Assembly: GCA_035445995.1 (NCBI GenBank)
Contig: DAOMRS010000001.1
Coordinates: forward strand, 369,203-433,202
From: Candidatus Babelota bacterium
GTDB lineage: Bacteria > Babelota > Babeliae > Babelales > Vermiphilaceae
Direction of reading: 5' to 3'
Length of the DNA stretch: 64,000 nucleotides
A program made the position numbers and the translations under genes. Below are positions 3,315-64,000 of the stretch, in pieces. Each line of letters opens with the position of its first letter. Position 1 is the first letter of the stretch. The notes under the pieces were generated by a model, which was given only the letters and a program-made list of their open reading frames with translations, was not told the DNA's origin and did not search any database.

Positions 3315-5066
3315 ATGATTCGCAAAAAGTATATACGTATTGTTACTACCCTATTTATTAGTGGGTTTTTGGCTGCCCAAGCTAGTGCTATGGAACAAGG
3401 CGCACAACAGCTTACCAATGCCCAACTCCAGACAATCCAAGCTGAAGCAGCACAGGCTATACAAGAAATGAACCAGAATGGCACAACTATAGAAGCCATT
3501 CTGCAGGAAATGGCACAGGATGAAGCACAGCATGCTGCCCCATTCAACACGGGCATACCGCAGATAGATGAGCTTACGCAACAAGCAGGTATTCTCCTTC
3601 CTGCCATACCCAACTTTGAAAAAGATCGTCAACGTGCACAAAATCAGAATACCGTATTACTTGGTCATCCAAAAGTACCGGTTGCACTGTATAAACGTGA
3701 CCTGTATGAATTACCGTTTTTTGCTGCAGATCTTGCTATTGCGTATGCAGGGTTTCATGTTTATAAACAATACCGCATAGAACACTTGTACAAACTATTG
3801 ACCACCCATACAGAAACAACCATCGAAGAACTTGAAAAAATTCAAAGTCTACAAAAACAAATTGAGAGCAAATCACTTGATGCTGCACAACAAGAAACTA
3901 CTCAAAAAGAGCTTGATACCTTATGGGAAAAATTTGGTGAACAACATGCATATATTGGATACAACCCCTTCAAGCTCGATATGCTCCTGCCACTCATTGG
4001 TACCATGATTGGACATGCTGCAAGCAGTTATGCACAAAGCAAAATTATCCTCAAAAACTCTTTTGTACCGGAAGCGCAATTTGCATACACAAAAAAAGCG
4101 GATGGTAGTTATGAACGTTTTGAACTTGATCGCATGTATACACCAACAATTGATGATTACAAAAAGTTGCTTGATACAAATCAGGGACACAATCATAACG
4201 ATGTTGCAACAGCTCTAAAAACAGCAGCAACATTTTATGGGTACGTAGGATTGTCTTCAGCATTCTGGTCAAAATCACCCCTTGCCGCTATGACCGCTTT
4301 AAAATTTTTTATTATCCCTAATCCGAACACACCAATTACTGACAACATGCCTGACATAGGGCCACTCATACCTGATGAAGCAATAGAAAAAGGTTGGTAT
4401 AAAATTACTGGCCTACCCGACTGGCTTCACACGGTAAAAAATGCACCCGCAACGCGTTATGTAATGGAAGCTATTATCCTCGGACGAATATTAATCCTAA
4501 TCGATCGTGCATATCACGGTGCATGGATAAAACATGTGCAAACAAATACCAATGAATTGATAACTCTATTAAAACAGTATCAGGCAACTCACGAATTATC
4601 CAATAAAAATCCAGACAAACAACATGCACAACAACAACTGAAAGATTTCATTGCAACCGGAACTACCATTACTTCATGGCGCACGGCATGCCAAGATTTA
4701 TTTGTTCATAAAGTTATGGGGCGCGCAAGTGTACAAGTCCGCGTAGTCAGTTGGCTGACTACCGCAATTAGTGCAAGCTTGTTATGGAAAAGCCGCACTC
4801 CTATCAAATTTATATATAATGGTGCAAAAACCGGCATTATTTCAACTGAAGCTCTGCTAATTGGTGGATTAATAACAGCGTATTATGGTGGCGCATTATT
4901 CGGCCCTATAGTAGCTCAATCAGCATACATAGTGTATCAAGATATAAAACATGTTGCACAAAGTATAAAAAATTATGTGTTGAAAAATTGGCAATCAAAA
5001 AAAGAAGATCCGGCAATAGTAGCAACAGATCAAGAAGAAATTAATAACGTATCAGTAACTAATTAA
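3315..5066 (+). CDS. hypothetical secreted/multi-pass membrane protein (Q-rich coiled-coil N-region)
   Basis: 583 aa. Signal-like N-terminus (IVTTLFISGFLAAQASA), a Q/A-rich helical segment, and several hydrophobic segments including C-terminal ones (ALLIGGLITAYYGGALFGPIVA). It is followed 12 bp later by the AAA+ gene. No family recognised. Confidence 0.6.
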   Translation: MIRKKYIRIVTTLFISGFLAAQASAMEQGAQQLTNAQLQTIQAEAAQAIQEMNQNGTTIEAILQEMAQDEAQHAAPFNTGIPQIDELTQQAGILLPAIPNFEKDRQRAQNQNTVLLGHPKVPVALYKRDLYELPFFAADLAIAYAGFHVYKQYRIEHLYKLLTTHTETTIEELEKIQSLQKQIESKSLDAAQQETTQKELDTLWEKFGEQHAYIGYNPFKLDMLLPLIGTMIGHAASSYAQSKIILKNSFVPEAQFAYTKKADGSYERFELDRMYTPTIDDYKKLLDTNQGHNHNDVATALKTAATFYGYVGLSSAFWSKSPLAAMTALKFFIIPNPNTPITDNMPDIGPLIPDEAIEKGWYKITGLPDWLHTVKNAPATRYVMEAIILGRILILIDRAYHGAWIKHVQTNTNELITLLKQYQATHELSNKNPDKQHAQQQLKDFIATGTTITSWRTACQDLFVHKVMGRASVQVRVVSWLTTAISASLLWKSRTPIKFIYNGAKTGIISTEALLIGGLITAYYGGALFGPIVAQSAYIVYQDIKHVAQSIKNYVLKNWQSKKEDPAIVATDQEEINNVSVTN

Positions 5067-5078
5067 GAGGAATATTTT

Positions 5079-6596
5079 ATGAATATACTAAAACAAATAC
5101 ATGCTATATTGCTTGCCATCATGGCATGCCAACCATTTATGGCATTTGGTATGGCCCCAAGTACTTCGGCACCACAGCAACCACAACAAGACATCCCACA
5201 ATTATTACGCTATCTACAATATGGTTTAGACGCTGCAGGTCATGCCGGTGCAACGGTTGTACGAGCAGGTGTGAATGCCGTAGACCTCATTCGCCAAGCC
5301 AACCAAGATCGTGCAGACAAACGTCGCAAAGAACTCATGAACATTATAAGCAACTATCCACCAACAAGTAAAATCAGGCAAGATGCTGAAGCTCAATTAG
5401 ATGCACTGCAAAAACAAGAAGCAGAAACAAACAAAGCACTCAATGATATTCAAGCTGGCGGTGCAAAAACCTTGGTAGATATGGGGCAAGCTGGCGTTGC
5501 AGTATTACGCAAATTTGGTGAAGAAACTGCAGAACGTCAAACTAAAGTACAAGTTGCAGCTGCACAAGGCTACCAGACGCGAAAAGGTATGGTTGAATCA
5601 GTAGAAAAAGTTATGGAAGTATTTACTAATACTAACACGCGTAACAAAGCAGTAGTGTTCTTGACACTCGGTACATTGGGCACCGTTGGTACATTCTATG
5701 GTCTAAAGTTCGGGTTTCAAGTGCTCAATGATTGGTACAACACACCGGAGCTTGCTGAAAAAACTTCACTCCTACCGTGGTACAAAAAATTGTTCGGCAA
5801 AACTACACAATCAGTTGCATTGAGTGATGTAATTTTTAACGCAAAGTTAAAAACAGAAACTGATGAGCTGGCACATATTTTACAAAACACGGTGAACAAC
5901 AATGGCTACTTTGAACATGTATTATTATATGGCGCTCCAGGTACCGGTAAAACATTATTAGCAACTGCTTTAGCAGACAACTGTGGACTTGAATATATCT
6001 ATTTTGCAGCTTCCGCATTTGAAGATCATACAACAGAAGAAGCCGTACGTAAGGTAAAACAACTCTTTAATTTTGCAAAAGCATCACGCAAAAAACTTAT
6101 GATCATTATTGACGAATCAGAGATGATATTCCAAAGTCGTCAATCTGGCATTGCATTGAGTGAAAAAATGAGTGCCGTACGCACAGAAATTATGGGACGT
6201 ATGGGAACGCCACAAAAAGACTTTATGATCATTGCGTTAACTAACCGTCCGGGTGAATTTGATAAAGCTTTTGATAGCCGATTTACCACTCAAATAGAAG
6301 TTAGTGCACCTGCAGCAGAACAACGCAAACAAATACTTGAATTATATATTAATAAATTGCTTGCCAGCCAGGGTGAAACCGACATTAAGCAACACCCATT
6401 ATTCACGCAAGCGTATATTAATCAGATAAATAGTAAATTGAATAACTTTGTTGGTCGTGATATTTTTAACCTAGTTGTTGCAATTCAAAATGCAGTCAAT
6501 GCAACTGAAGATAAAAAAATCACCAAAGATTTGGTTGATCGTATTGTTGAACGTAAAATTGCACAAAAACAAAAAGATCATAAAAATTACGCATAA
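5079..6596 (+). CDS. AAA+ ATPase with N-terminal leader, coiled coil and central TM helix (ATAD3-like architecture)
   Basis: Walker A LLYGAPGTGKTLLA and Walker B LMIIIDESE. The arginine-finger region is FDKAFDSRF. Upstream lie a coiled coil (KRRKELMN...QLDALQKQEAETNKALNDIQ) and a TM segment (AVVFLTLGTLGTVGTFYGLKFGF). Confidence 0.85.
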   Translation: MNILKQIHAILLAIMACQPFMAFGMAPSTSAPQQPQQDIPQLLRYLQYGLDAAGHAGATVVRAGVNAVDLIRQANQDRADKRRKELMNIISNYPPTSKIRQDAEAQLDALQKQEAETNKALNDIQAGGAKTLVDMGQAGVAVLRKFGEETAERQTKVQVAAAQGYQTRKGMVESVEKVMEVFTNTNTRNKAVVFLTLGTLGTVGTFYGLKFGFQVLNDWYNTPELAEKTSLLPWYKKLFGKTTQSVALSDVIFNAKLKTETDELAHILQNTVNNNGYFEHVLLYGAPGTGKTLLATALADNCGLEYIYFAASAFEDHTTEEAVRKVKQLFNFAKASRKKLMIIIDESEMIFQSRQSGIALSEKMSAVRTEIMGRMGTPQKDFMIIALTNRPGEFDKAFDSRFTTQIEVSAPAAEQRKQILELYINKLLASQGETDIKQHPLFTQAYINQINSKLNNFVGRDIFNLVVAIQNAVNATEDKKITKDLVDRIVERKIAQKQKDHKNYA

Positions 6597-14826: not shown

Positions 14827-14998
14827 ACTGATCATTTTCATTATCTCTGGTTTACGTCCATTACTTGGTCCCGCACATTGCAAATATCCAGTAACCTGTA
14901 CACCATATGCTATTGAACAACTCAACACCCAACCATTACACCGCGCACTAGGGTTAATTATTAGACGCATATTATCATGCAATCCATTTGGAGGATAA
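14807..14998 (+). CDS. yidD: membrane protein insertion efficiency factor YidD
   Basis: CKYPVTCTPYAIEQL...RRILSCNPF matches the YidD C-x-F/Y-x-P-T-C-S/T-x-Y pattern. It overlaps the rnpA end, as is common. Confidence 0.8.
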   Translation: MIRIINKLIIFIISGLRPLLGPAHCKYPVTCTPYAIEQLNTQPLHRALGLIIRRILSCNPFGG

Positions 14999-15000
14999 CT

Positions 15001-16419
15001 ATGATAAAAAGATACGCACGATTATTCATAATCAGTTGTATTACATCGCTATGCTATGGCATGGAACAAGACATAAATCTTGTAGATTTACCAAAAGATA
15101 ATTTTATTGAAATTATCACACAAATAGTCAGAACCACTGGCATACCAGCAATACAAAACAATGCTGACGTTCCGGTCATTGCCAAATACCTTACCTGGTT
15201 ATCATGTACCAACAAAATGTTTTATACCACGGTAAATAATCCTCCTATGGTTCAATTAATCATCAAAGAAATGGCAGCCCGATTTGGCATACCTGAAATA
15301 AACGCTGCACTTCACCTAAAAACTCCTAGCGCACAAGCATGGTTACAGTCACATTTTCTAGATAAACCTGAGGATGTAATCATGACAGGTATAGATTATG
15401 TCTTGCATACTGCCGCACAGGAATTCATTAAAGAACATGCTTTGATACAAATTATATTAACATCTATTCAGATATCTCAAACTACGACTACTCATCGAAC
15501 TATTTTTATGACAACACAAGAAAACAGAGATAGTTCGGATTACGATATCATTTTCTACACACCATGGGGAAAATATACCTATTTAATTAAACCATCCTTA
15601 GGTTGGATTGATGAGATGTTTGATCTTTTTATGCAACATATATGCAATAAGCTATCTGCAACAATTGAGCACATACCAGAAGTAAAATCAGTACCATTAA
15701 AAAAATTAAAAGAAAATAATCTGACAAATAATATCGGTATAGTATTATTTTATCAAAACATATATGAAGATATAGATTATGCTGATGCAAAAAAGCTACT
15801 TACTACCAATCAGGTATTTAGTTGTTATTATGGTCCATGTACATATCGTGTACATACGGTTGCAGGACATAAAATACCCTCTCCAAATATTTTTGATTAT
15901 ACACCATTACAAAGACAAGTACTCGGACAAGTACCTACATACAGACTCCTACCTCGTCAAAAAAACAATGAATCTTTTACTGAACCAGATGAACAACCAT
16001 TGGATACCATAGATCAACTTTCCAATTGGGCAGGTATGAGGCTAGAAAATAAAATGGATAAGCAAATCTATGAGTATGTTATAGATAAATTCAAACCTGA
16101 ATCTATTAATGACTTTATTCAGCTTATTACAACGGGTTGGCAAAGAACAACCTTAGAAAACTGCAGCGGTATTCTATGTAAACTTTCACCAGCAGACTAT
16201 TTTCTTGTAAAAAAAGAATTTGAAATACCCTGCGTATACTCTTTCATGCAATTAATTGCCTATAAACTCAAGCTAACCGGCAAATTAATAAGCACCTGGA
16301 AAAGATATAAGTTTACCGGTAGCGAATTTCATGATGATTCATTCACTGCTTATCTTTGGATTCGCAAAGATGCCTCCGATGAAGTAGTACATAAACTAAA
16401 GTTGCAAATAAATGAATAA
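15001..16419 (+). CDS. hypothetical protein with N-terminal hydrophobic leader and F-box-like motif
   Basis: Start ATG 15001 follows GGAGG. Leader MIKRYARLFIISCITSLCYG, then INLVDLPKDNFIEIITQIV...LSCTNKMFYTTVNNP, which resembles the F-box consensus L-x-x-LP-x-E-[IL]-x-x-I...[VL]-C-K-x-W-x-x-L-V-x-D. The rest is unrecognised. Confidence 0.6.
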   Translation: MIKRYARLFIISCITSLCYGMEQDINLVDLPKDNFIEIITQIVRTTGIPAIQNNADVPVIAKYLTWLSCTNKMFYTTVNNPPMVQLIIKEMAARFGIPEINAALHLKTPSAQAWLQSHFLDKPEDVIMTGIDYVLHTAAQEFIKEHALIQIILTSIQISQTTTTHRTIFMTTQENRDSSDYDIIFYTPWGKYTYLIKPSLGWIDEMFDLFMQHICNKLSATIEHIPEVKSVPLKKLKENNLTNNIGIVLFYQNIYEDIDYADAKKLLTTNQVFSCYYGPCTYRVHTVAGHKIPSPNIFDYTPLQRQVLGQVPTYRLLPRQKNNESFTEPDEQPLDTIDQLSNWAGMRLENKMDKQIYEYVIDKFKPESINDFIQLITTGWQRTTLENCSGILCKLSPADYFLVKKEFEIPCVYSFMQLIAYKLKLTGKLISTWKRYKFTGSEFHDDSFTAYLWIRKDASDEVVHKLKLQINE

Positions 16420-25471: not shown

Positions 25472-25933
25472 TCATAGGTAGGCTACAAATACTTGTAGTC
25501 TATAGTCATCTTCGTCATCTGACATATTTTCTTCTATTGTTACTTCACTCCAAGGGATACCTTCATGATACGACGAAGTTTTAAAATTTTTCAATATTGA
25601 CAATGAGTCATGAACCAAATCAATCTTGCAACCAAATGGCAGCTGTGTAACGTGCCCAGAAATAATATTAAAACGTAACTGACTTGCCATCTCATCAAAC
25701 CACATGTATAACGTTTTATCTTGATTATTACTTTTTATTTGTAAAATAAGGTTATTGACAAATTTTTGTAAATCCTGTATCGACACTGTTTCTACTGCTC
25801 CTGGGTCAAGCGATATGCCCCACATATTAGTCAATGTTTCTTCATCACGTAGCTGGTGATTACCAGTTATGAGTACTGGACTATTCAAAATAATATTTAA
25901 ATCACTAGCTTGCTTAATAATGATATGATTCAT
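25472..25933 (-). CDS. candidate immunity protein, translationally coupled to the Hint-domain toxin
   Basis: Start ATG (25933-25931) overlaps the toxin stop TGA (25932-25930) as ATGA. It is an acidic 153-aa protein with no leader. Confidence 0.55.
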   Translation of the reverse strand: MNHIIIKQASDLNIILNSPVLITGNHQLRDEETLTNMWGISLDPGAVETVSIQDLQKFVNNLILQIKSNNQDKTLYMWFDEMASQLRFNIISGHVTQLPFGCKIDLVHDSLSILKNFKTSSYHEGIPWSEVTIEENMSDDEDDYRLQVFVAYL

Positions 25934-27000
25934 GAACAACCTATTATATCTTTGTATGGTATAAATATACCCGTTGGACCCTTATGTTTTCCCATTATGG
26001 GACTTCCTTGAGCATCTGCATCAAAAATCCATTCAAGTCCTTTAGATGTTTCTTTGAAAACTTTATATTGCGAACCACCATGACTTGCTCGATCCTTAGA
26101 CCACCAATATTTTGTATCTGGATCTTGGTATATATTACCAAACCGTTGCGTTCTTCCTCTCTTACCTTTTTTTGATTTAAATTTATCAAAAAAATTTGTT
26201 TTATTATTTTTGTCTTTATTTTCCGGATCTTCCGGACTACCACCTGCTGCCATTTTTGAATTGTTGTTATAATTACTCTGCGCATTATTATTCTCTTTTT
26301 GGTGCTGTTCAATATAAGCGGTATTAAATGACAACTTATAATCTACAACTTTTCTGCCAGCGATCTTTTTCCATATAATGCCAGCAACGCTTCCAATCAC
26401 CAGTCCACCTACAACAGCCGGCGCACCAATGCTCAAACCAAATAAACTTCCAAGTGCACCAAGCTCGAATGGGATTTTTGCCCCAGCTAATAATGCAACT
26501 GGCAACACCATGTTATGTGTGAGTACTGCATGTTGACCAACCAAGAAGGTGTGCGTATTTTGTACTTCAATAGAACAGACTGCTCGTTTATTTTTTATAA
26601 ACTCAACATAAGTAACAGGAATTAATGTGTTGTATTGTCCCAGAAGAATATCACCTTGGCGCAGCTCATATGCAGATACCCATTTGTTGGTCAGTGCAAG
26701 ATAGAATTCTTGTGTAGGTGTACAGATAATGTCATTACAACCACCATCAAGCCCTAGCGCAAAATAACAGTTAGTTTCACTTTTACCACCACTGGCAACA
26801 TGACTACTCACCCAACATTTTTTATCAACATCATAACTTGCTATAGATTGTTTTTTGTTCTTTGCAGCAAGTTCACATATTTGCTCCAAAGGATACCAAC
26901 TATTATGATCATTTTTGACTAAAGTAGATGGATCAAAACCATGGGAGCATAATTGAGATATGAATACTAAGCAAAAACCAGCAAGTATATAATACTTCAT
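25930..27000 (-). CDS. Hint-domain polymorphic toxin-like protein (leader + Hint + Gly-rich hydrophobic segment + C-terminal toxin-like module)
   Basis: Leader MKYYILAGFCLVFISQL, then a Hint signature from C-SHGFDPSTLV through TPTQEFY...WVSAYELRQGDILL...IEVQNTHTFLVGQHAVLTHN. Next comes the hydrophobic segment LAGAKIPFELGALGSLFGLSIGAPAVVGGLVIGSVAGII, a low-complexity N/K linker and a basic C-terminal domain. Confidence 0.75.
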   Translation of the reverse strand: MKYYILAGFCLVFISQLCSHGFDPSTLVKNDHNSWYPLEQICELAAKNKKQSIASYDVDKKCWVSSHVASGGKSETNCYFALGLDGGCNDIICTPTQEFYLALTNKWVSAYELRQGDILLGQYNTLIPVTYVEFIKNKRAVCSIEVQNTHTFLVGQHAVLTHNMVLPVALLAGAKIPFELGALGSLFGLSIGAPAVVGGLVIGSVAGIIWKKIAGRKVVDYKLSFNTAYIEQHQKENNNAQSNYNNNSKMAAGGSPEDPENKDKNNKTNFFDKFKSKKGKRGRTQRFGNIYQDPDTKYWWSKDRASHGGSQYKVFKETSKGLEWIFDADAQGSPIMGKHKGPTGIFIPYKDIIGCS

Positions 27001-40440: not shown

Positions 40441-41757
40441 TTAAACCACTGGATATGTGCCGTAAATCGGCGACCAAGTAGGGTAATCACAATGCGCTAC
40501 TACGGGCGTAATATAGTGCCAATCTGAGGTCAACATGTTAAAAATACCCAAACGGGATCGGTCAGCCCGTTCTACTGATGCCAAAATATAATTGCCACAT
40601 GGGGACCACGAACATTCATCCTTGTTTGCTTTATCATGGGTAATCTGTGTATGTTTTTTAGTGGCAATATCATAGGTAAAAATTTGCATAACCCCTTCTA
40701 CTCGCTTAATATAGGCTATGCAGTTTTTAGTAGCACAATAGCTTGGCGAAGCACAATAACCTTCGCTAGAAATACGTTCTACTCGCCCAGTTGCCAGTTC
40801 ATATTGAAAAATCTGTGGATATTCGGTCAAAAAATCAGAACAGAAAAACACAGTATTACCATCCGCAGTAAGCGTTGGTGAAACATTATTGCCATGCTGC
40901 ATGGAACGATGTGTTATCGGATCAGTATATTGTAGTTTTTTGAATTTACTTGTTGCATCATAATAATATAGTTGGCAGTTGCCATCGCCACGTGACGCGC
41001 AATATACTACTTTTTTCCCATCATCAGAAAATGAAGTCAACATATTAATACCATCAAAGTCTGAAGCAATGCGCCGTTGTTTTTTCATATTAACTACCAT
41101 CAAGCGTACATTTTCATTGGTATATTCTGAATAAAAAATTAATGGATTTTGCGCATCATGATTCCAACGCGGCACAACATTCACGGTTGGCGTATTAACA
41201 ATAATTTTCTCATTCTTACCATCATAATCGGCAACACAAATATGCTTGATACTTTTGCCTTTTATCGGATCTATTTTTTTACAGTAAGCTATTTTAGTTG
41301 AAAAAAAACCAGGCTGCCCGGTTAGTGTTGGCCACACAGCATCTGCTATATTATGCGCCCATCCATTTGGATCTATACTACGTTTTGTATATTTTTTACC
41401 TTTCACCATATGCACACAAGCAGTGTCGTATACACGCCATTCGAATGCGCTCCCCTGTTTTGCTTCACTCATAAATATGGCCAATGGATAGCCCTGCTTG
41501 AATAAATCTTTAATATCTTTTTTTGATAAAGGCGTTTCTATTGGTTTAATTGCTACATCAAACTGACCACTAAATGTTAAATCATCTTGTAATCGTCCCG
41601 CAACTTGAAATAGTTGCGAATTTGAATCACCTACAACACAAATAGCTAATGGGACTTTTGCACGTTGTACACCTTGTACATCTATGTTTTGCGTTGGGTG
41701 TGTATAGGTTACTACTACACACATGACACTCAATAAACGATAAAAAATTTTAGTCAT
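40441..41757 (-). CDS. tolB: TolB-like periplasmic beta-propeller protein
   Basis: Signal peptide, N-terminal TolB-type domain and repeated propeller blades (PRWNHDAQNPLIFYS, SFSDDGKKVVY, PTLTADGNTVFF, SWSPCGNYI, PTWSP). It lies directly downstream of tolQ-tolR-tolA-like. Confidence 0.8.
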   Translation of the reverse strand: MTKIFYRLLSVMCVVVTYTHPTQNIDVQGVQRAKVPLAICVVGDSNSQLFQVAGRLQDDLTFSGQFDVAIKPIETPLSKKDIKDLFKQGYPLAIFMSEAKQGSAFEWRVYDTACVHMVKGKKYTKRSIDPNGWAHNIADAVWPTLTGQPGFFSTKIAYCKKIDPIKGKSIKHICVADYDGKNEKIIVNTPTVNVVPRWNHDAQNPLIFYSEYTNENVRLMVVNMKKQRRIASDFDGINMLTSFSDDGKKVVYCASRGDGNCQLYYYDATSKFKKLQYTDPITHRSMQHGNNVSPTLTADGNTVFFCSDFLTEYPQIFQYELATGRVERISSEGYCASPSYCATKNCIAYIKRVEGVMQIFTYDIATKKHTQITHDKANKDECSWSPCGNYILASVERADRSRLGIFNMLTSDWHYITPVVAHCDYPTWSPIYGTYPVV

Positions 41758-54441: not shown

Positions 54442-55863
54442 CTATATTTTTATTGCCTCTTCATCCAAACCAATAACCTCATTCTTTGCTATAGCGCGAT
54501 CAAATCGACGACCAAGCAAATATGCAGCCATAAACCATAACCCCACTACTCCTGCGAAGAAGAAAGAATGTAATGGCATATACATGGAAACAGATACCTG
54601 TGTAGTTGCCCAGTTAAATGCCGATCCACTAGTCTTAGCAAATTTACTACCAAAGGCATCAATCCATGATTTTGATTTAAACTTAATTTCTTTAACTGTT
54701 GGTATATATAAACTTTCCCTGACTGGCCAGCTAAATGCCAAGTTAATAGATTTTAAGATACTATATGCTAATCCAAACATAAATGGCGATGCATCAAACA
54801 TTACATAGCACAATACTGCCCCACATACTAACGGTATTAAAAAAAGACACACTCGTGTACCTAGCCGCTTGAGTAATTCTCTCGTACCCAGTAACGAGAT
54901 AAGAAACCCAATAGCATGAGATAACATGATCATCCATAATAAATTTGCCGTTACTCCCGCAAGCGTATCAGCATTCGCTTCTGCAACTTTTAAACGCAAA
55001 AAACTCAAAACTGTGCTGACAACTTCGTAAAAATAAACCATACCAAATATACCCAAAACATATGGATATCGAATTAGCAACCATAATCCGGCAAACATAC
55101 CAGTTTCATTTTTACCCTCTTTCTTTCGTAACTTTTCCGCTTGATACACTGCTTCATAACCATGTAAATACTGGCCAGGAACATGTTTTATCATCATTAA
55201 TGTCATAATCGGCACTAAAATAAGCATACATGATGACATAGCATAGACTAACTGATGCGCATAAATGTCCACACTACGTGAATAGGTAGCAGAAGCACTT
55301 ATACCGCTCAATATAATCCAAGCAATAAGTGCACTTGTTACACCACCAAATTTAGACCCTGCAACCATCAATCCATAATTGTTTTTTGCTTCTTGAGGGC
55401 TAGAAATTGAGTTTGCAAACGCCCAAAATACACTGACCAAAAATGGTGAATATGCTTCGACAAAAAAGTAAAATACCCATCCAAATATACGATCGGGACC
55501 TATATTCGTGTTTGGTAATCCAATAACCGGATGCCCTAATAAATAAGTAAAAAGAAACCCTAGCATCCCAAAAAATAACGCACAATAGTTCAGTAATTGA
55601 TAACGACGCACCTTATCTACTAACTTTGAATATAAAAAAATTGCTGGCATAAGCCCAAATAACACCACCGTGCGCGCAAGAGGAACATATTCTCTACCTA
55701 CTATTTGCAAAAACACCGAATCTTTCAATTCTTTAGCTATAGTATATCCACCAATAATCAAACAAAATGCCATAGACAAAAACAATAGCTTTTGCCGCTC
55801 ATGCGGCTCAACATCAAAAAGCGCTCCAAACACGTTTCTTATTTTCGACCCCATTCCCATCAA
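54442..55863 (-). CDS. ATP/ADP translocase family nucleotide transporter (Tlc/NTT), copy 1
   Basis: About 12 TM helices. N-terminal family signature ERQKLLFLSMAFCLIIGGYTIAKELKDSVF. Confidence 0.8.
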   Translation of the reverse strand: MMGMGSKIRNVFGALFDVEPHERQKLLFLSMAFCLIIGGYTIAKELKDSVFLQIVGREYVPLARTVVLFGLMPAIFLYSKLVDKVRRYQLLNYCALFFGMLGFLFTYLLGHPVIGLPNTNIGPDRIFGWVFYFFVEAYSPFLVSVFWAFANSISSPQEAKNNYGLMVAGSKFGGVTSALIAWIILSGISASATYSRSVDIYAHQLVYAMSSCMLILVPIMTLMMIKHVPGQYLHGYEAVYQAEKLRKKEGKNETGMFAGLWLLIRYPYVLGIFGMVYFYEVVSTVLSFLRLKVAEANADTLAGVTANLLWMIMLSHAIGFLISLLGTRELLKRLGTRVCLFLIPLVCGAVLCYVMFDASPFMFGLAYSILKSINLAFSWPVRESLYIPTVKEIKFKSKSWIDAFGSKFAKTSGSAFNWATTQVSVSMYMPLHSFFFAGVVGLWFMAAYLLGRRFDRAIAKNEVIGLDEEAIKI

Positions 55864-56029
55864 TGCATCCCTCTTGCCTTAAATACAAACAACAAATACA
55901 TTAGCCCGAATTAATTCACTCACCCTAATTCACTCACTTCTTTATACATGAAAGAGCCTTCGTCGATTATCGACAGAAGGCTCTTTCTTTTTTAATTCAT
56001 CATCATAATAGTATGCTTCAGCTTACTGA

Positions 56030-57364
56030 CTAACATACAATCTCATTATTCTCAATAGCTTTATTATATGTTTTTGCAACATACATTGCTACCAAAATCC
56101 ATCCAGCAATTAATCCCATTGAACCAACAGAAATCATTGTTAAGAATACGGATAGGCCAAGTGCCCCACGCGTACCATTTATTAATGATGCAGTTGCTTT
56201 TGAACCACGAGAACCAAACATTTCTATCCAAGCTTGTGCTTTATATTTAGCATCTGCACTAGTTGGAATATACAATTGTTTCATAGTCGGTTGGTTCAAT
56301 GCATAGTTGATAGCTTTTGAGAATACCATGATAGCAGCCGATAAATATAGTGCTGTTGGATACCATGTAATCAACAATACAGCTCCCGCAACCAAAATTG
56401 GCAATAAGATCAATGATGCGAGCATACCAAGCTTACGCTGAATATTGTTAATACCAAACAATACGCTTAACGTTGCAACTACACCAACCATATATGCATA
56501 TTGAGATAAGAATGCACTGCGTCCAAGCTCACTCGAAAAAGAACCATACACGGTTAATTTGAAATGGTAGTCAATTACTGTAACGATAACTTCGTATAAA
56601 GAAATAATTAAGAAAATACCAAAGAGATATCCTTGAGTAACCAATAATCTGAGACCTTCAAAAAACCCTGGTTCTGATTCTGGATGAGCAGATTTATCAC
56701 CTTTAAAACCAGTCAACTGATTTTTTGGTGTAATATTAAAGAACAACCACATAAGGAATAAGGTCAATCCCATTAATACTGCAAGAATACCTAGTATTGG
56801 CGCACTATTGGCAAACCCAAGCGTTCTTGCATTTAAGAAATATGGCCCAAAAATGTTACCCATTTGACCAACTAATGCAATAAGCGGGAATCCACGCTTA
56901 GCTGATTCTGGCAAAGTAATATCAACAGTAATCGCCCAGAATAACGCTACAATCAACGAACCAAAACTTTCTACAAACACATACCAAGCCCAACCGATAT
57001 AACGAGTAGGGTCTTCTACTGTATTAGCCAATCCAATAGTAGGATCAGAGAATGCCCACCAAAAGAAAACCGCTAATGCTGCATACACAGATAACAAACC
57101 ATAAAATACTTTTTCACGAGGGAAAGTATCAACCAATTTTGAATACACTAAAACAAGTGGAGTAATAACGAAAAGGGAAACAATCTTTGCCATCCATAAA
57201 TAATCGCCACCCACAACTGACATGAAAATACTATCTTTAATCGGACGCATAGTCCAATATATACCGATAATTAGGCCGAACATAGCTGCTAACATACCGA
57301 ATTTCTGTACTTCTTCTCTACTCTCAAACTTACCCCAAAGGGTCTGCGCAATACGCTTAAACAT
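56030..57364 (-). CDS. ATP/ADP translocase family nucleotide transporter (Tlc/NTT), copy 2
   Basis: About 12 TM helices. N-terminal signature VQKFGMLAAMFGLIIGIYWTMRPIKDSIF. It is a paralog of 54442..55863. Confidence 0.8.
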   Translation of the reverse strand: MFKRIAQTLWGKFESREEVQKFGMLAAMFGLIIGIYWTMRPIKDSIFMSVVGGDYLWMAKIVSLFVITPLVLVYSKLVDTFPREKVFYGLLSVYAALAVFFWWAFSDPTIGLANTVEDPTRYIGWAWYVFVESFGSLIVALFWAITVDITLPESAKRGFPLIALVGQMGNIFGPYFLNARTLGFANSAPILGILAVLMGLTLFLMWLFFNITPKNQLTGFKGDKSAHPESEPGFFEGLRLLVTQGYLFGIFLIISLYEVIVTVIDYHFKLTVYGSFSSELGRSAFLSQYAYMVGVVATLSVLFGINNIQRKLGMLASLILLPILVAGAVLLITWYPTALYLSAAIMVFSKAINYALNQPTMKQLYIPTSADAKYKAQAWIEMFGSRGSKATASLINGTRGALGLSVFLTMISVGSMGLIAGWILVAMYVAKTYNKAIENNEIVC

Positions 57365-60297: not shown

Positions 60298-60501
60298 ATG
60301 AATAAAACAGTTTTAACAACTGCATTAAGTATCAGCATTTTATTAGTGATTCCTGCTTGTGGTGGCACAAAACAAAAAAAATCAGCAACCCCAAAGAAGC
60401 TTGATATTATTGAAGCACTCATTGAAGAAGAAACAACTAAAAATGTTGAAGATGATATTAATATAGAAGAAGAACAAGACGAAGTACGCATTAAATTTTA
60501 A
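60298..60501 (+). CDS. small acidic lipoprotein (candidate)
   Basis: 67 aa. Leader MNKTVLTTALSISILLVIPAC with a lipobox-like IPAC. E/D-rich remainder. Confidence 0.5.
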   Translation: MNKTVLTTALSISILLVIPACGGTKQKKSATPKKLDIIEALIEEETTKNVEDDINIEEEQDEVRIKF

Positions 60502-60526: not shown

Positions 60527-60557
60527 GAGCCCAGCAAAATTGCTGGGCTTTTTTTTT
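60527..60557 (+). terminator. Rho-independent terminator
   Basis: GAGCCCAGCA-aaau-UGCUGGGCU hairpin followed by T9. Confidence 0.75.
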
Positions 60558-60591: not shown

Positions 60592-62265
60592 ATGAGTACT
60601 TTTCAAAAAACAGCTTTTATTTTAATGTTCTCATGCCATTTTGCTTTAATGAGCATGACTACCGATGAGAAATTAAAATTCAGCACGCATGATGAAACAT
60701 CTCAGGATGAACCTATTGCTATCAAAAAAAACCTCTGCCAACATTCAAATACCATAACTAACATGGTAGAAGATTTGGAATCCACTGATGTCATTCCTCT
60801 AGATAAACTGGATCGTGCAACATTATTATTAGTGAAAGACTACTTAAAAATTATCCATAAGATGAAACAGCGTACTACATCTGGCATCCGAAAAAATAAA
60901 ATACATACCAAATTACGTACGTTGCTCCAATCGCTCGCAAGCCCTGTTCTTAAATCTGTTATACACGCTAGCAATTTTCTTGATGTAAAAAAATTACTTA
61001 AATATTCCTGCCACGCGTGGCAACAACGCGTCTTTTCTCAAAAAACTCTCCATAAATTATATAAAAGAGAAACCCTATTTACTAAACCTAATTTATTATT
61101 ACCAGCTGAAATAGACACCTTAGCTACAAAAGAAATTGGTACTCAATTAGCTCAGTACATTTATAAAAACCATATAGCAACCACACCACAATTACATAAC
61201 AAACCAATTTACAAATGTGGGTTTGGACTACGCTCAGTAAGTTATAATCATGATGGATCTTTTATTGCTGCAGGCTCAGGTGATCATTGCATTTATATCT
61301 TTGACGCCCACACGTTGTACCTCGTAGATACATTAGTCGGACATACTATGGTTATAGAGCAAATCAAATTTGGCCCCACACACACCAAATTACTTGCTTC
61401 AACATCTGCAGACCATACCGTACGCATTTGGCATCTTGATACCAATATCTGTGATGTATTGGAAGGACATACCAAAGGAACTAATGCCATCGCGTTTAAT
61501 ACTGATGGCACTAAACTTGCATCTACATCTGAGGATAAAACAGTACGCATTTGGAGTATTCCAAATAAAACATGTTTATATACTATTAATGGAAACACAA
61601 GAGCTACATGGAAAGTCTTTTTCAACACAGATAATCTTATTACCGTAGCAGCATGTGATAATACGGTTAAACAATGGAAACTACTAGAAGATCAAAAAAC
61701 TGAGTTAAAAAATAGCTTTGAGGGAAGCTATGGCGAATTATGTTTTAATAAAAAGCAAACCATATTTGCTACTGATACACAGGATTATAACATCCATTTA
61801 ATAGATGTAGAAACAGGTGCACTGTATCGTATTTTTAAAGGACACAGTAGCCCAATTTTTTATTTAGTCTTTAATCATGACGAGACATTATTAGCATCTT
61901 GCTCAAAAGATCATACGATACGCATTTGGGATATAGAAGCCGATACCTGTATAAGAACTATTAATCAGCATACAGATTATGTTTATGAAGTAAGTTTTTC
62001 TCCAGATGGATGCAAGTTAATTTCTGCATCACAAGATTGCACATTGTATATGTGGACATTACTTGGGCAAGAAAAGAAACGGTTGTTAGACAAATTACAA
62101 AAGAGAACATTACTCAAACATGCACAACTGTTATGGCTGGCATTTACTGAACATACCTATAACCCACTTAACCTAAGAAGATATCCATATTTGAAACAGT
62201 TATTTGATGAGTTTAATACCACCGAGAAAAAAATATTCCGCAAGCATTTAAATATCCTCGCCTAA
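60592..62265 (+). CDS. Skp1/BTB-like domain fused to WD40 beta-propeller, with N-terminal hydrophobic leader (paralog A)
   Basis: Start ATG 60592, after the terminator. Leader TAFILMFSCHFALMSM. Skp1-like blocks IAIKKNLCQHSNTITNMVEDLESTDVIPLDKLDRATLLLVKDYL and VLKSVIHASNFLDVKKLLKYSCHAW. WD40 repeats follow (DHCIYIFD, DHTVRIWHL, DKTVRIWSI, DNTVKQW, DHTIRIWDI, DCTLYMW). Confidence 0.75.
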   Translation: MSTFQKTAFILMFSCHFALMSMTTDEKLKFSTHDETSQDEPIAIKKNLCQHSNTITNMVEDLESTDVIPLDKLDRATLLLVKDYLKIIHKMKQRTTSGIRKNKIHTKLRTLLQSLASPVLKSVIHASNFLDVKKLLKYSCHAWQQRVFSQKTLHKLYKRETLFTKPNLLLPAEIDTLATKEIGTQLAQYIYKNHIATTPQLHNKPIYKCGFGLRSVSYNHDGSFIAAGSGDHCIYIFDAHTLYLVDTLVGHTMVIEQIKFGPTHTKLLASTSADHTVRIWHLDTNICDVLEGHTKGTNAIAFNTDGTKLASTSEDKTVRIWSIPNKTCLYTINGNTRATWKVFFNTDNLITVAACDNTVKQWKLLEDQKTELKNSFEGSYGELCFNKKQTIFATDTQDYNIHLIDVETGALYRIFKGHSSPIFYLVFNHDETLLASCSKDHTIRIWDIEADTCIRTINQHTDYVYEVSFSPDGCKLISASQDCTLYMWTLLGQEKKRLLDKLQKRTLLKHAQLLWLAFTEHTYNPLNLRRYPYLKQLFDEFNTTEKKIFRKHLNILA

Positions 62266-62345
62266 GCTAAAAAATATCTTCTTGCATAAGACGGTGTTTG
62301 TGGCAAAATCTTAGACAATAAACTCACTTCTTGGAGAAAGAAGTA

Positions 62346-64000
62346 ATGAACATAAAAATTATATTATCATATGGATTATATTTTGTTTTTTGTTGCTACG
62401 CTATGGATGGTGATACTATAACAATAGAATGCCTCAGCCATAACCCACCTCAAAAAGTACTATTACCAAAAAAGTATGTAGCTTTATGGCAGACAATCAA
62501 TGAAGCCTTAGAAACAAATCCAACAGAAAGAACGATTGCCCTTCCGCATATAAATAAAATCACTGCCCAACTTATTATTGAAACCTATGTACCAGAAATA
62601 TATAGATGCAAAAAAAAGTTATTAACTCCACAAATAGCCAATGGCATTCGTACACATATAAAAACTCTATTAAATCAACTATCCTTGCAAGATCTTTATA
62701 CGGTAATGAAAGCAGCCGACTATCTTAATATTCCAGAACTCATACAACTGAGCTGTAAAGTATGGATACACAAAAGCGTTGCAGCTCAATCTTTTGCACA
62801 TTTACATGAAAAAAACAATCAAATTGCCTCTTATATGCTGGTGCCCACCTTATATGCGTGTATATACAATCAACTTGCACCCTCGTTGACCTCATACTTA
62901 TATCGACGTCACATTGCCACTAGAGATCCTATGCCAGATACTATTATCCTACAGTTAGAACATAATGACCATAATATTGATGATGGTTTTAATAACGTTT
63001 TATTCAATACAGATAACACTCATATAGCTGCTGGTTCAAACCGAGGCATAATATACATACAGCCGATTAATAAAAAATATGATCTTTTGACATTATTAGA
63101 CCACCATCAAGCAATAACATCTTTATGCTTTAGCCCAACAAATCCCTTTTTGCTTGCCTCAGGTTCATATGATCACACTATTAAACTATGGGATTTAGAA
63201 AAGGACAGCAGCCTTATACATACATTTGAAGGACATACTACTCCTGTCAGTAACATCACTTTTAATCCAACAGGTACACATCTTGTATCAACATCTATCA
63301 TGGATAATACCACGCGCATTTGGAATATAACTACCAAACAATGTATACAAATATTACCCATAGAAGAATATCCATGGAGAGTCAAGTTCTTAAATAATAC
63401 TACTTTTGCCTGTGCCACTTGTGCTAACGCTATATATTTTTGGCAATGGAATGCTGCAACCAATATGTATACAACTATAGATATATTAAAACAAGCAAGT
63501 TTCGGTGAATTTGGATTTAACCATACAAACAATACATTTGTAACAGATACACACTCCGGTACAATTTTACTGGTAGATTTTAATACCAAAAATCTTATAT
63601 ATAGATTCCTCAAGCATACTGATACTATTTACGGCCTTTGCTTTAATCATGCTGGAAATCTATTAGCATCTGCCTCCGATGATAAAACCATTTGCATCTG
63701 GGATCTGTCTACAAAACAATGTATTCAACGATTACATCATGGTGCAGCAGTGAAAGCAATTGACTTTACTGCTGATGACACTGCATTAATCTCTGCTTCT
63801 CATGATGGTACCGTGCGGATATGGCAACTTGTTACCCCTAATCATAAAGCTGCCCTGGATAGCCTAAAACAACTTACATATTTATGCGATCCAGTCACTC
63901 GCACAGACAAACCAACTATTGTATTTGATCAACTGCGACTCCTTGCTTATATGTCATCACTTACACAAGAAAACCAATCATTAAATCTTAATGAATATCC
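62346..64000 (+). CDS. Skp1/BTB-like domain fused to WD40 beta-propeller, with N-terminal hydrophobic leader (paralog B; partial, runs off window end)
   Basis: Manual translation from ATG 62346 (after GGAGAAAG) is open to the window end. Sequence reads MNIKIILSYGLYFVFCCYA..ITIECLSHNPPQKVLLPKKYVALWQTINEALETNPTERTIALPHINKITAQLIIETY...LYTVMKAADYLNIPELIQLSCKVW. WD40 repeats follow (DHTIKLWDL, DNTTRIWNI, DKTICIWDL, DGTVRIWQL). It is absent from the ORF track because there is no stop in the window. Confidence 0.75.
   Translation, partial: MNIKIILSYGLYFVFCCYAMDGDTITIECLSHNPPQKVLLPKKYVALWQTINEALETNPTERTIALPHINKITAQLIIETYVPEIYRCKKKLLTPQIANGIRTHIKTLLNQLSLQDLYTVMKAADYLNIPELIQLSCKVWIHKSVAAQSFAHLHEKNNQIASYMLVPTLYACIYNQLAPSLTSYLYRRHIATRDPMPDTIILQLEHNDHNIDDGFNNVLFNTDNTHIAAGSNRGIIYIQPINKKYDLLTLLDHHQAITSLCFSPTNPFLLASGSYDHTIKLWDLEKDSSLIHTFEGHTTPVSNITFNPTGTHLVSTSIMDNTTRIWNITTKQCIQILPIEEYPWRVKFLNNTTFACATCANAIYFWQWNAATNMYTTIDILKQASFGEFGFNHTNNTFVTDTHSGTILLVDFNTKNLIYRFLKHTDTIYGLCFNHAGNLLASASDDKTICIWDLSTKQCIQRLHHGAAVKAIDFTADDTALISASHDGTVRIWQLVTPNHKAALDSLKQLTYLCDPVTRTDKPTIVFDQLRLLAYMSSLTQENQSLNLNEY

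Follow-up and report, generated by a model that had tools for sequence, protein, structure and literature searches.

Effectors that carry an F-box, such as AnkB/LegU1 of Legionella, GALA of Ralstonia, VirF of Agrobacterium and the Ank/PRANC proteins of poxviruses, hijack the Skp1-Cul1-F-box (SCF) ubiquitin ligase of the host through a foreign substrate receptor (PMC4209131, PMC1781473). In BTB-BACK-Kelch, MATH-BTB and poxviral BTB-Kelch proteins, one chain unites a cullin adaptor of BTB fold and a substrate-binding domain, and the BTB-Kelch proteins have been called 'single chain analogs of Skp1/beta-TrCP1' (PMC3597819; PMC1257465). Amoeba-associated chlamydiae encode dozens of BTB proteins with leucine-rich repeats (BTB-LRR) that bear type III secretion signals (PMC1257465, PMC4209131), and the Parachlamydiaceae have been stated to be the only prokaryotes known with BTB domains (PMC4209131). 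In the Dependentiae (TM6), a widespread phylum of protist parasites, host-interaction proteins have hardly been characterised; the genome papers report WD40 and F-box proteins but no Skp1-like domain (PMC4378268, PMC4776705), and our literature search found no paper linking Skp1 with this phylum. Here we analyse two adjacent genes, A and B, in a 64,000-nucleotide stretch (hereafter the window) of contig DAOMRS010000001.1 from a Candidatus Babelota bacterium (assembly GCA_035445995.1, positions 369,203 to 433,202), each of which joins a hydrophobic leader and a Skp1-like domain to a WD40 propeller. We put at about even the chance that A and B belong to a rapidly evolving family of exported proteins of host interaction, specific to Dependentiae, whose members act as secreted, single-chain, F-box-independent substrate receptors of host Cul1.

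The features of the pair, with positions in the window and residue numbers in the respective protein, are the following.

60592..62265, + strand: gene A, 557 aa with an ATG start, encoding leader, Skp1-like domain, helical linker, seven-bladed WD40 propeller and helical tail.

60592..60654, + strand: hydrophobic leader of A, MSTFQKTAFILMFSCHFALMS, followed by M-T-T-D-E; a putative Sec signal peptide.

60670..61032, + strand: Skp1-like BTB/POZ core of A (aa 27-147), beta-beta-alpha-alpha-beta and then helices up to the equivalent of Skp1 H5.

61039..61182, + strand: H6 equivalent and one long linker helix of A (aa 150-197), which runs directly into blade 1.

61195..62058, + strand: WD40 propeller of A (aa 202-489), seven blades.

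62068..62247, + strand: C-terminal four-helix tail of A (aa 493-552), a high-confidence part of the rigid body in the model.

62346..64000, + strand: gene B, cut by the end of the window, with 551 aa inside it and an A-like architecture.

62346..62402, + strand: hydrophobic leader of B, MNIKIILSYGLYFVFCCYA, followed by M-D-G-D.

62439..62768, + strand: Skp1-like domain of B (aa 32-141), placed by a canonical-Skp1 hidden Markov model (HMM) and by alignment to A; more diverged than that of A.

62958..63875, + strand: WD40 propeller of B (about aa 205-510), placed by Pfam WD40 and by blastp to the propeller of A.

An earlier note, made from the letters alone, had described two neighbouring same-strand genes with leader, N-terminal domain and WD40 repeats, and we confirm this description, including the peptide strings it quoted, which are present verbatim. 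Protein A is identical to the NCBI hypothetical protein PLU71_02105 of a Candidatus Dependentiae metagenome-assembled genome (MAG; GCA_035444025.1), with the same gene model. In the source contig the full protein B has 580 aa (L001 11755-13497), and its gene ends at the window-equivalent position 64088. The two proteins are paralogs with 32% identity over 468 aa (blastp, E 2e-68), in an alignment that begins within the N-domain (A54/B50).

The N-domain is a true Skp1 homolog according to five largely independent tests, and the likeness to Skp1 that the earlier note had proposed, together with the profile and structure searches it suggested, is thus borne out by significant Skp1 matches from Pfam, phmmer against the PDB, an exhaustive profile scan, the canonical-Skp1 HMM and Foldseek. 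The Pfam family PF03931 (Skp1_POZ) recognises A with E 2.2e-5 (24.9 bits against a gathering cut-off of 21.9) and matches 12 of 18 aligned family N-domains. B by itself has no Pfam match for this domain, yet we count it as Skp1-like because the canonical-Skp1 HMM and the alignment to A support it. A phmmer search of PDB sequences with residues 1-186 of A returned 26 matches, all 26 of them Skp1 and none Elongin C, with Dictyostelium Skp1a at the top (E 3.2e-6, aa 35-142). The HMM, built from 78 canonical eukaryotic Skp1 proteins only, gives 84.5 bits for A, 56.6 for B and 56.7 for a third paralog, against 8.6 for the best of 600 shuffled controls, and all 30 family N-domains exceed 25 bits. 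In the reverse direction, a profile of three N-domains scanned exhaustively with HMMER against 1.84 billion representative proteins gave 175 matches at E<=1e-3; among the 150 of these that were listed, the proteins of 110-370 aa (mostly 140-220 aa) are nearly all canonical Skp1, re-confirmed against human SKP1 with E values of 1e-10 to 1e-56. Word-indexed homolog searches, with the N-domain alone or with a 20-sequence family profile, found almost nothing, and it was the exhaustive HMMER scan that revealed the family.

The predicted structure points in the same direction. An AlphaFold2 model of residues 24-215 of A, computed from an alignment that included canonical Skp1 sequences, has a mean predicted local distance difference test (pLDDT) score of 86.7 and the beta-beta-alpha-alpha-beta-helix topology of Skp1, and a Foldseek search of the PDB with it gave nothing but Skp1 chains among the top 50 (E values as low as 1.9e-6, probability 1.00, template modelling (TM) score up to 0.78), with neither a generic BTB protein nor Elongin C among them. 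The PLZF-type BTB family PF00651 has no match in the N-region of A at E<=10, where Pfam returns only Skp1_POZ and a chance NanE match. The domain is therefore Skp1-type, and neither a generic BTB domain nor Elongin C. As to its origin, no donor lineage emerged: the nearest named canonical Skp1 matches come from plants, algae, a dinoflagellate, a ciliate and the amoebozoan Arcella. A scan of viral contigs found no relatives of the family, which leaves a giant-virus source without support.

The direct fusion of this domain to a WD40 propeller, also proposed earlier, is shown by Pfam and by the full-length AlphaFold model of A (aa 24-557; pLDDT 95.1). In this model, the predicted template modelling (pTM) score of 0.91 indicates that Skp1-like domain, linker, propeller and tail form one rigid body. 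PF00400 (WD40) matches A with E 1.9e-46 in 6 stretches and B with E 2e-41 in 4 stretches, and the modelled propeller of A has 28 strands, that is 7 blades, with pLDDT about 97. Its best Foldseek match, using the full model, is the prokaryotic WD40 protein 5yzv (TM 0.93, 31-33% identity), with WDR5 also close, and by sequence the propeller is nearest to WD40 proteins that are mostly from bacteria, cyanobacteria included, and in some cases from fungi. The protein thus appears to combine a Skp1 domain of eukaryotic origin with a propeller of bacterial type. The C-terminal tail is conserved in B (YPYL..LF..FN motif), in the orthologs and in distant members of the family.

This architecture would bypass the F-box, as had been suggested, and it shows neither a detectable F-box nor the C-terminal F-box-binding domain of Skp1: no Pfam F-box family matches the N-regions, linkers or tails of A and B at E<=10, and the family at large likewise gave no match to an F-box model. 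In the linker helix the family conserves the motif L-P-x-[ED]-I (L170-P171-A-E173-I174 in A), and we considered whether this motif and the tail could be a remnant or in-cis F-box. Neither the linker nor the tail matches a Pfam F-box or Skp1 C-domain family at E<=10, and the motif aligns to Skp1 positions 137-141, at the H6-H7 junction, and not to an F-box, so that such a role is unsupported, though structurally possible. A further suggestion, that an F-box-like protein is encoded elsewhere in the window, found no support, since the open reading frame (ORF) in question (14977..16419) has no Pfam match at E<=10. This 480-aa ORFan (14977-16419, + strand) has an export leader followed by ME and contains 'LVDLPKDNFIEII'.

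Next, to see which Skp1 residues are kept and which are lost, we aligned human SKP1 and the 78 canonical proteins with 30 family N-domains. The positions of strongest conservation in the BTB/POZ part of canonical Skp1 (S24, T26, D33, V45, P46, L47, L100, A106, N108, Y109, L110, I112, L115 and L116) are kept in the family at frequencies of 0.83-0.97, with I45 at 0.90, P46 at 0.87, L47 at 0.87, N108 at 0.83 and Y109 at 0.83 (0.97 for any aromatic residue). Among them are P46, N108 and Y109, which reportedly lie in the Cul1 interface of the SCF structure (Zheng et al. 2002), an assignment that our literature search did not confirm. The residue conservation that bears on the surface test set by the earlier note is found in the family as a whole, with B deviating at two positions: A carries I68-P69-L70 where human SKP1 has V45-P46-L47, and N128-F129 at N108-Y109, and B has I64-A65-L66-P67 and D125-Y126 at the positions of P46 and N108/Y109. 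On the opposite side, in the C-terminal part, which binds the F-box, the columns conserved in canonical Skp1 (C120, A124, K130, R136, F139, D144 and E148) are replaced in the family, the canonical-Skp1 HMM alignments end near position 135, and PF01466, the Skp1 C-terminal domain (H7-H8), matches no family member and only the human control. Judged from these alignments, the family retains the hallmark residues of the Skp1 N-domain and has lost the C-terminal F-box-binding signature; with the C-domain missing, the family protein is a Skp1 homolog and not a complete Skp1.

The same fusion recurs in related genomes, as the survey proposed in the earlier note would look for. The long matches among those listed from the exhaustive scan are Skp1-like+WD40 fusions, in at least 15 clusters at 50% identity, and all named ones belong to Candidatus Dependentiae or Babeliales; by its named members, the family seems restricted to this obligately intracellular phylum. 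A query of species-representative genomes with a 3-sequence subgroup, which reaches that subgroup only, found five loci in two Babeliales MAGs, whose flanks show tandem arrays of 2, 3 and 5 family genes, and metagenome contigs hold further family genes, likewise in tandem. On the source contig, a third paralog (943 aa, with a precomputed Skp1_POZ match) lies 9 kb downstream of B. The partner domain is not constant: the Skp1-like N-domain is also fused to ankyrin repeats in three JGI metagenome proteins with classic AxA signal peptides (P0170, P0172 and P0203), and P0238 has two tandem Skp1-like domains ahead of its propeller. Several of the tandem paralogs in the Babeliales MAG JBFXEV010000001.1 (L005 272-2014, 2084-3742, 3812-5653 and 5724-7379) end in a hydrophobic, tail-anchor-like C-terminus, ..AAVALGTGAALGVLGWCAYKWFASDNSNN, which suggests membrane insertion of some family members.

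A related organism has the identical locus, in the order rpsB-TLC-TLC-lon-lipoprotein-A-B-small ORF-cmk-recJ. Its syntenic orthologs are 43% (A) and 31% (B) identical to ours, beside 81-85% for the flanking RpsB, TLC, Lon and RecJ proteins, and this difference, together with the tandem expansion, is the pattern of fast-evolving host-interaction genes.

The leaders of A and B consist of about 20 hydrophobic residues behind a short polar or basic N-end, and manual inspection found a basic or polar N-end and a hydrophobic core of 12-15 aa in all family members. The residue that precedes a near-invariant Met is mostly small (A/G/C/S/T), the Met is followed by Asp or Glu, and the conserved Met aligns with the initiator Met of Skp1. 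Only this Sec-type leader is seen in A and B, with no recognisable type III/IV signal. In the literature, signal peptides have been found on 44% of the coding sequences of Chromulinavorax and on 78% of its ankyrin proteins, which are regarded as secreted effectors (PMC6561590), those of Babela have been called 'somewhat atypical' (PMC4378268), and a type II secretion system is common to TM6 genomes (PMC4776705).

We also noted that the junction of leader, small residue, Met and Asp/Glu is recurrent (..FCCYA-MD, ..AQASA-ME, ..SLCYG-ME, ..FVSS-ME and ..SSAFG-ME). It is found in all Skp1-like family members and also in unrelated ORFan proteins of the window; the sites noted are 60592-60660, 62346-62408, 3315-3395, 14977-15070, 47589-47510 (- strand) and 5079-5160 in the window, together with the family genes of loci L002-L008. 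At this point the M-[DE] dipeptide is far commoner than would be expected by chance. The junction could be a motif for export or cleavage that is specific to the phylum, could mark a second start codon, or could be left over from the grafting of leaders on captured genes.

Taken together, the reading that we prefer, to which we give the even chance stated above, would work as follows. The Sec-type leader would carry the protein out of the bacterial cytoplasm, and onward release would presumably be by the type II secretion system core to the phylum, or by vesicles. In the host, the Skp1-derived BTB/POZ domain would dock on the N-terminal domain of a cullin of the protist, most likely Cul1, and the rigidly joined WD40 propeller would position a host protein facing the Rbx1-E2 end of the ligase. 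The bacterial protein would thereby redirect host ubiquitination as an SCF substrate receptor made of one piece and independent of the F-box; along this path we infer cleavage of the leader, secretion, entry into the host cytosol, binding to the cullin and ubiquitination of a target bound by the WD40 propeller. The broader proposal, that this is the first known bacterial Skp1 mimic, a family of secreted self-contained Cul1 receptors that bypass host Skp1 and F-box, with interchangeable WD40 and ankyrin domains, rapidly diversifying arrays and some tail-anchored members, is in our judgement somewhat short of an even chance.

Several observations weigh against a cullin-docking role. The N-domains of the syntenic orthologs are only 35% (A) and 22% (B) identical, versus 52% and 38% for the propellers, and a domain that held on to a highly conserved cullin would not be expected to diverge more than its propeller. 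B keeps the pattern only in part, with non-conservative changes at A65 (P46) and D125 (N108), and A itself has N128-F129 in place of N108/Y109. Some of the hallmark conserved residues are also structural, so that their conservation gives no proof of a binding surface. The canonical Skp1 sequences in the AlphaFold2 alignment helped the model to resemble Skp1. Finally, a Sec leader reaches the periplasm only, and we know of no onward route to the host cytosol that has been demonstrated for Dependentiae.

Of the other explanations, the one nearest to our preferred reading also starts from the conserved Skp1 N-domain motifs and the loss of the F-box-binding residues, and takes the protein for an inhibitor of the SCF or a decoy for cullins: by engaging Cul1 of the host, or a different partner of Skp1, with no productive ubiquitination, the Skp1-like domain would shut the host SCF down, with the propeller localising the protein or blocking access. 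By binding Cul1 yet failing to engage F-box proteins, such a protein would be a competitor of host Skp1, and the tail-anchor-like C-terminal segment of some L005 paralogs suggests membrane sequestration. A pure competitor, however, needs no rigidly coupled propeller (pTM 0.91), and the swap of the repeat domain to ankyrin and the many fast-diverging paralogs fit diversified target recognition instead; we regard the decoy as unlikely.

The Skp1-like domain could also serve the bacterium in the host without any cullin, as an interaction or oligomerisation module or as a non-SCF Skp1 mimic (for example in RAVE/V-ATPase assembly), with the propeller as a scaffold, an account that we likewise find improbable. 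Skp1 is reported to have a non-SCF role in RAVE (PMC11648922). The Foldseek matches of the N-domain include CBF3 and cytoplasmic-lattice structures, and the rapid divergence of this domain among orthologs, with P46 and N108 lost in B, would suit such a role. However, the best-kept blocks of the family are those most conserved in the BTB/POZ part of canonical Skp1, and the non-SCF complexes known for Skp1 rely on its C-terminal F-box-binding region, lost in the family.

A third possibility, which we consider rather more doubtful, is a bacterial envelope protein, in which the leader targets the periplasm or cell surface, the propeller and the helical domain serve the bacterium, and the Skp1 similarity is an evolutionary leftover. 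It would be in keeping with a leader that is of Sec type only, with the bacterial-type WD40 proteins closest to the propeller (5yzv; cyanobacterial and other bacterial homologs) and with the presence of TolB-like PD40 propeller proteins in the same window (40444..41757), but it sits poorly with a eukaryote-specific adaptor domain that keeps its hallmark motifs in >30 divergent copies, with the confinement of the family to an obligately intracellular phylum and the existence of ankyrin variants, and with a tandem expansion and an ortholog identity of 31-43% beside 81-85% neighbours that are typical of host-interaction genes. Eukaryotic contamination or mis-assembly, by which the genes would come from the protist host, could appeal to the Skp1 homology and to a WD40 type that is common in eukaryotes too, but it can be dismissed because the same synteny recurs in independent assemblies from other samples, the GC content equals that of the neighbours, and the genes have Shine-Dalgarno-like motifs, a rho-independent terminator and no introns within a 1.1-Mb bacterial contig, among lon, rpsB, dnaX, cmk, recJ and aspS, in an architecture not seen among the named eukaryotic matches.

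Regarding the organisation of the pair, gene A has a Shine-Dalgarno-like AAAGGG 8-13 nt upstream of its ATG and gene B a Shine-Dalgarno-like GGAGAAAG upstream of its start, and we found no terminator-like hairpin between the two genes. One strong element of this kind precedes gene A.

60527..60550, + strand: intrinsic-terminator-like hairpin with a 10-bp stem, 6 G-C pairs and a T-run, just upstream of gene A.

By its position, this hairpin is predicted to close the lon/lipoprotein unit ahead of gene A. The neighbours of A and B on the 1.1-Mb contig include rpsB, dnaX, der, lon, cmk, recJ and aspS. Beside lon stand two adjacent genes for TLC-family ATP/ADP translocases (54442-57364, - strand), whose synteny is kept in the related organism with 81-83% identity (L014/L015). 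Adjacent TLC translocase genes are a hallmark of energy parasitism, and the two translocases, together with the bacterial housekeeping genes nearby, fit an energy-parasitic intracellular bacterium. The two TLC genes and Lon had first pointed to an environmental chlamydia, a reading that we set aside, as NCBI assigns the source to Candidatus Dependentiae and the relatives belong to Babeliales. Small lipoprotein-like ORFs flank the pair at 60298-60501 (+) and at L001 13598-13846, with lipoboxes ..VIPAC and ..VLPGC, and they too are poorly conserved across the syntenic genomes (34-51% identity). Further away in the window, an AAA ATPase (5079-6596, + strand; PF00004, E 5e-25) has an N-terminal hydrophobic leader (..MAFG-MA) and recalls the leader-bearing AAA-ATPase fusions reported to be expanded in Babela massiliensis (PMC4378268), and a leader-bearing protein of 356 aa (25933-27000, - strand) weakly resembles Pretoxin-HINT (PF07591, E 7e-4, short of the cut-off).

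If the receptor reading of A and B is right, the family would give a molecular handle on host rewiring by an almost unstudied phylum and would be one of the earliest effector families of Dependentiae/TM6 to be open to mechanistic interpretation. A fusion of Skp1 to a propeller would need no host Skp1, host F-box proteins could not out-compete it, and it would be a natural minimal 'Skp1-receptor' design, relevant to engineered degraders. The family also brings together a domain of eukaryotic origin, a WD40 propeller of bacterial type and an export leader.

Compared with eukaryotic Skp1 (PF03931 plus PF01466), the family has a homologous BTB/POZ domain, which bears the motifs S-x-T-I-K-N-M-L-E-D, I-P-L-P and A-A-N-Y-L-D-I, as well as helices equivalent to H5/H6, and differs from it in the absence of the C-terminal F-box-binding signature, in the WD40 propeller and helical tail fused in cis, in the export leader and in being bacterial. 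From Elongin C, a Skp1_POZ protein of ~112 aa that ends after H4, it differs by its H5/H6 equivalents, which align to Skp1 residues 113-136. The complexes of Skp1 with beta-TrCP, Fbw7 or Cdc4 show the same succession of Skp1 fold, rigid helical connector and 7/8-bladed WD40 propeller, but they are made of two chains with an interdigitated F-box/Skp1 interface, whereas the family protein is one chain with a shorter connector. In line with this, FBXW11 aligned only loosely to the full A model, over 426 columns, with a modest global fit (TMt 0.69, root-mean-square deviation 9.4 A).

The BTB-Kelch and MATH-BTB proteins are alike by functional analogy. They use a dimeric PLZF-type BTB domain (PF00651) and a 3-box/BACK and bind Cul3, whereas the domain of the family is Skp1-type, its linker is one long helix complemented by a C-terminal tail, and its propeller is WD40 and not Kelch. 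In the BTB-LRR (PEX1) and F-box families of Parachlamydiaceae, a eukaryote-like adaptor is likewise joined to repeats in tandem-expanded, fast-evolving presumed effectors (PMC4209131; PMC1257465); the present family is found in Dependentiae, is Skp1-type instead of BTB or F-box, has WD40 or ankyrin in place of LRR and a Sec-type leader in place of type III signals. The earlier note did not recognise the architecture as a described effector class. The one-piece, apparently secreted Skp1-like/WD40 adaptor looks like a form for which we found no description in bacteria, but its novelty was overstated, since single-chain BTB-fold adaptors are well known (PMC3597819, PMC1257465, PMC4209131), and eukaryotic BTB-Kelch and chlamydial BTB-LRR proteins are, by analogy, conceptual precedents for A and B. 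F-box effectors imitate the F-box partner and depend on the Skp1 of the host, and the structure of one of them bound to Skp1 (AnkB-Skp1, 5k35) is among the Foldseek matches of the A N-domain. The family resembles Skp1 itself and has no detectable F-box, and a Skp1 mimic fused in cis to a propeller would thus differ from the known F-box, BTB and SOCS-box-like receptor mimics.

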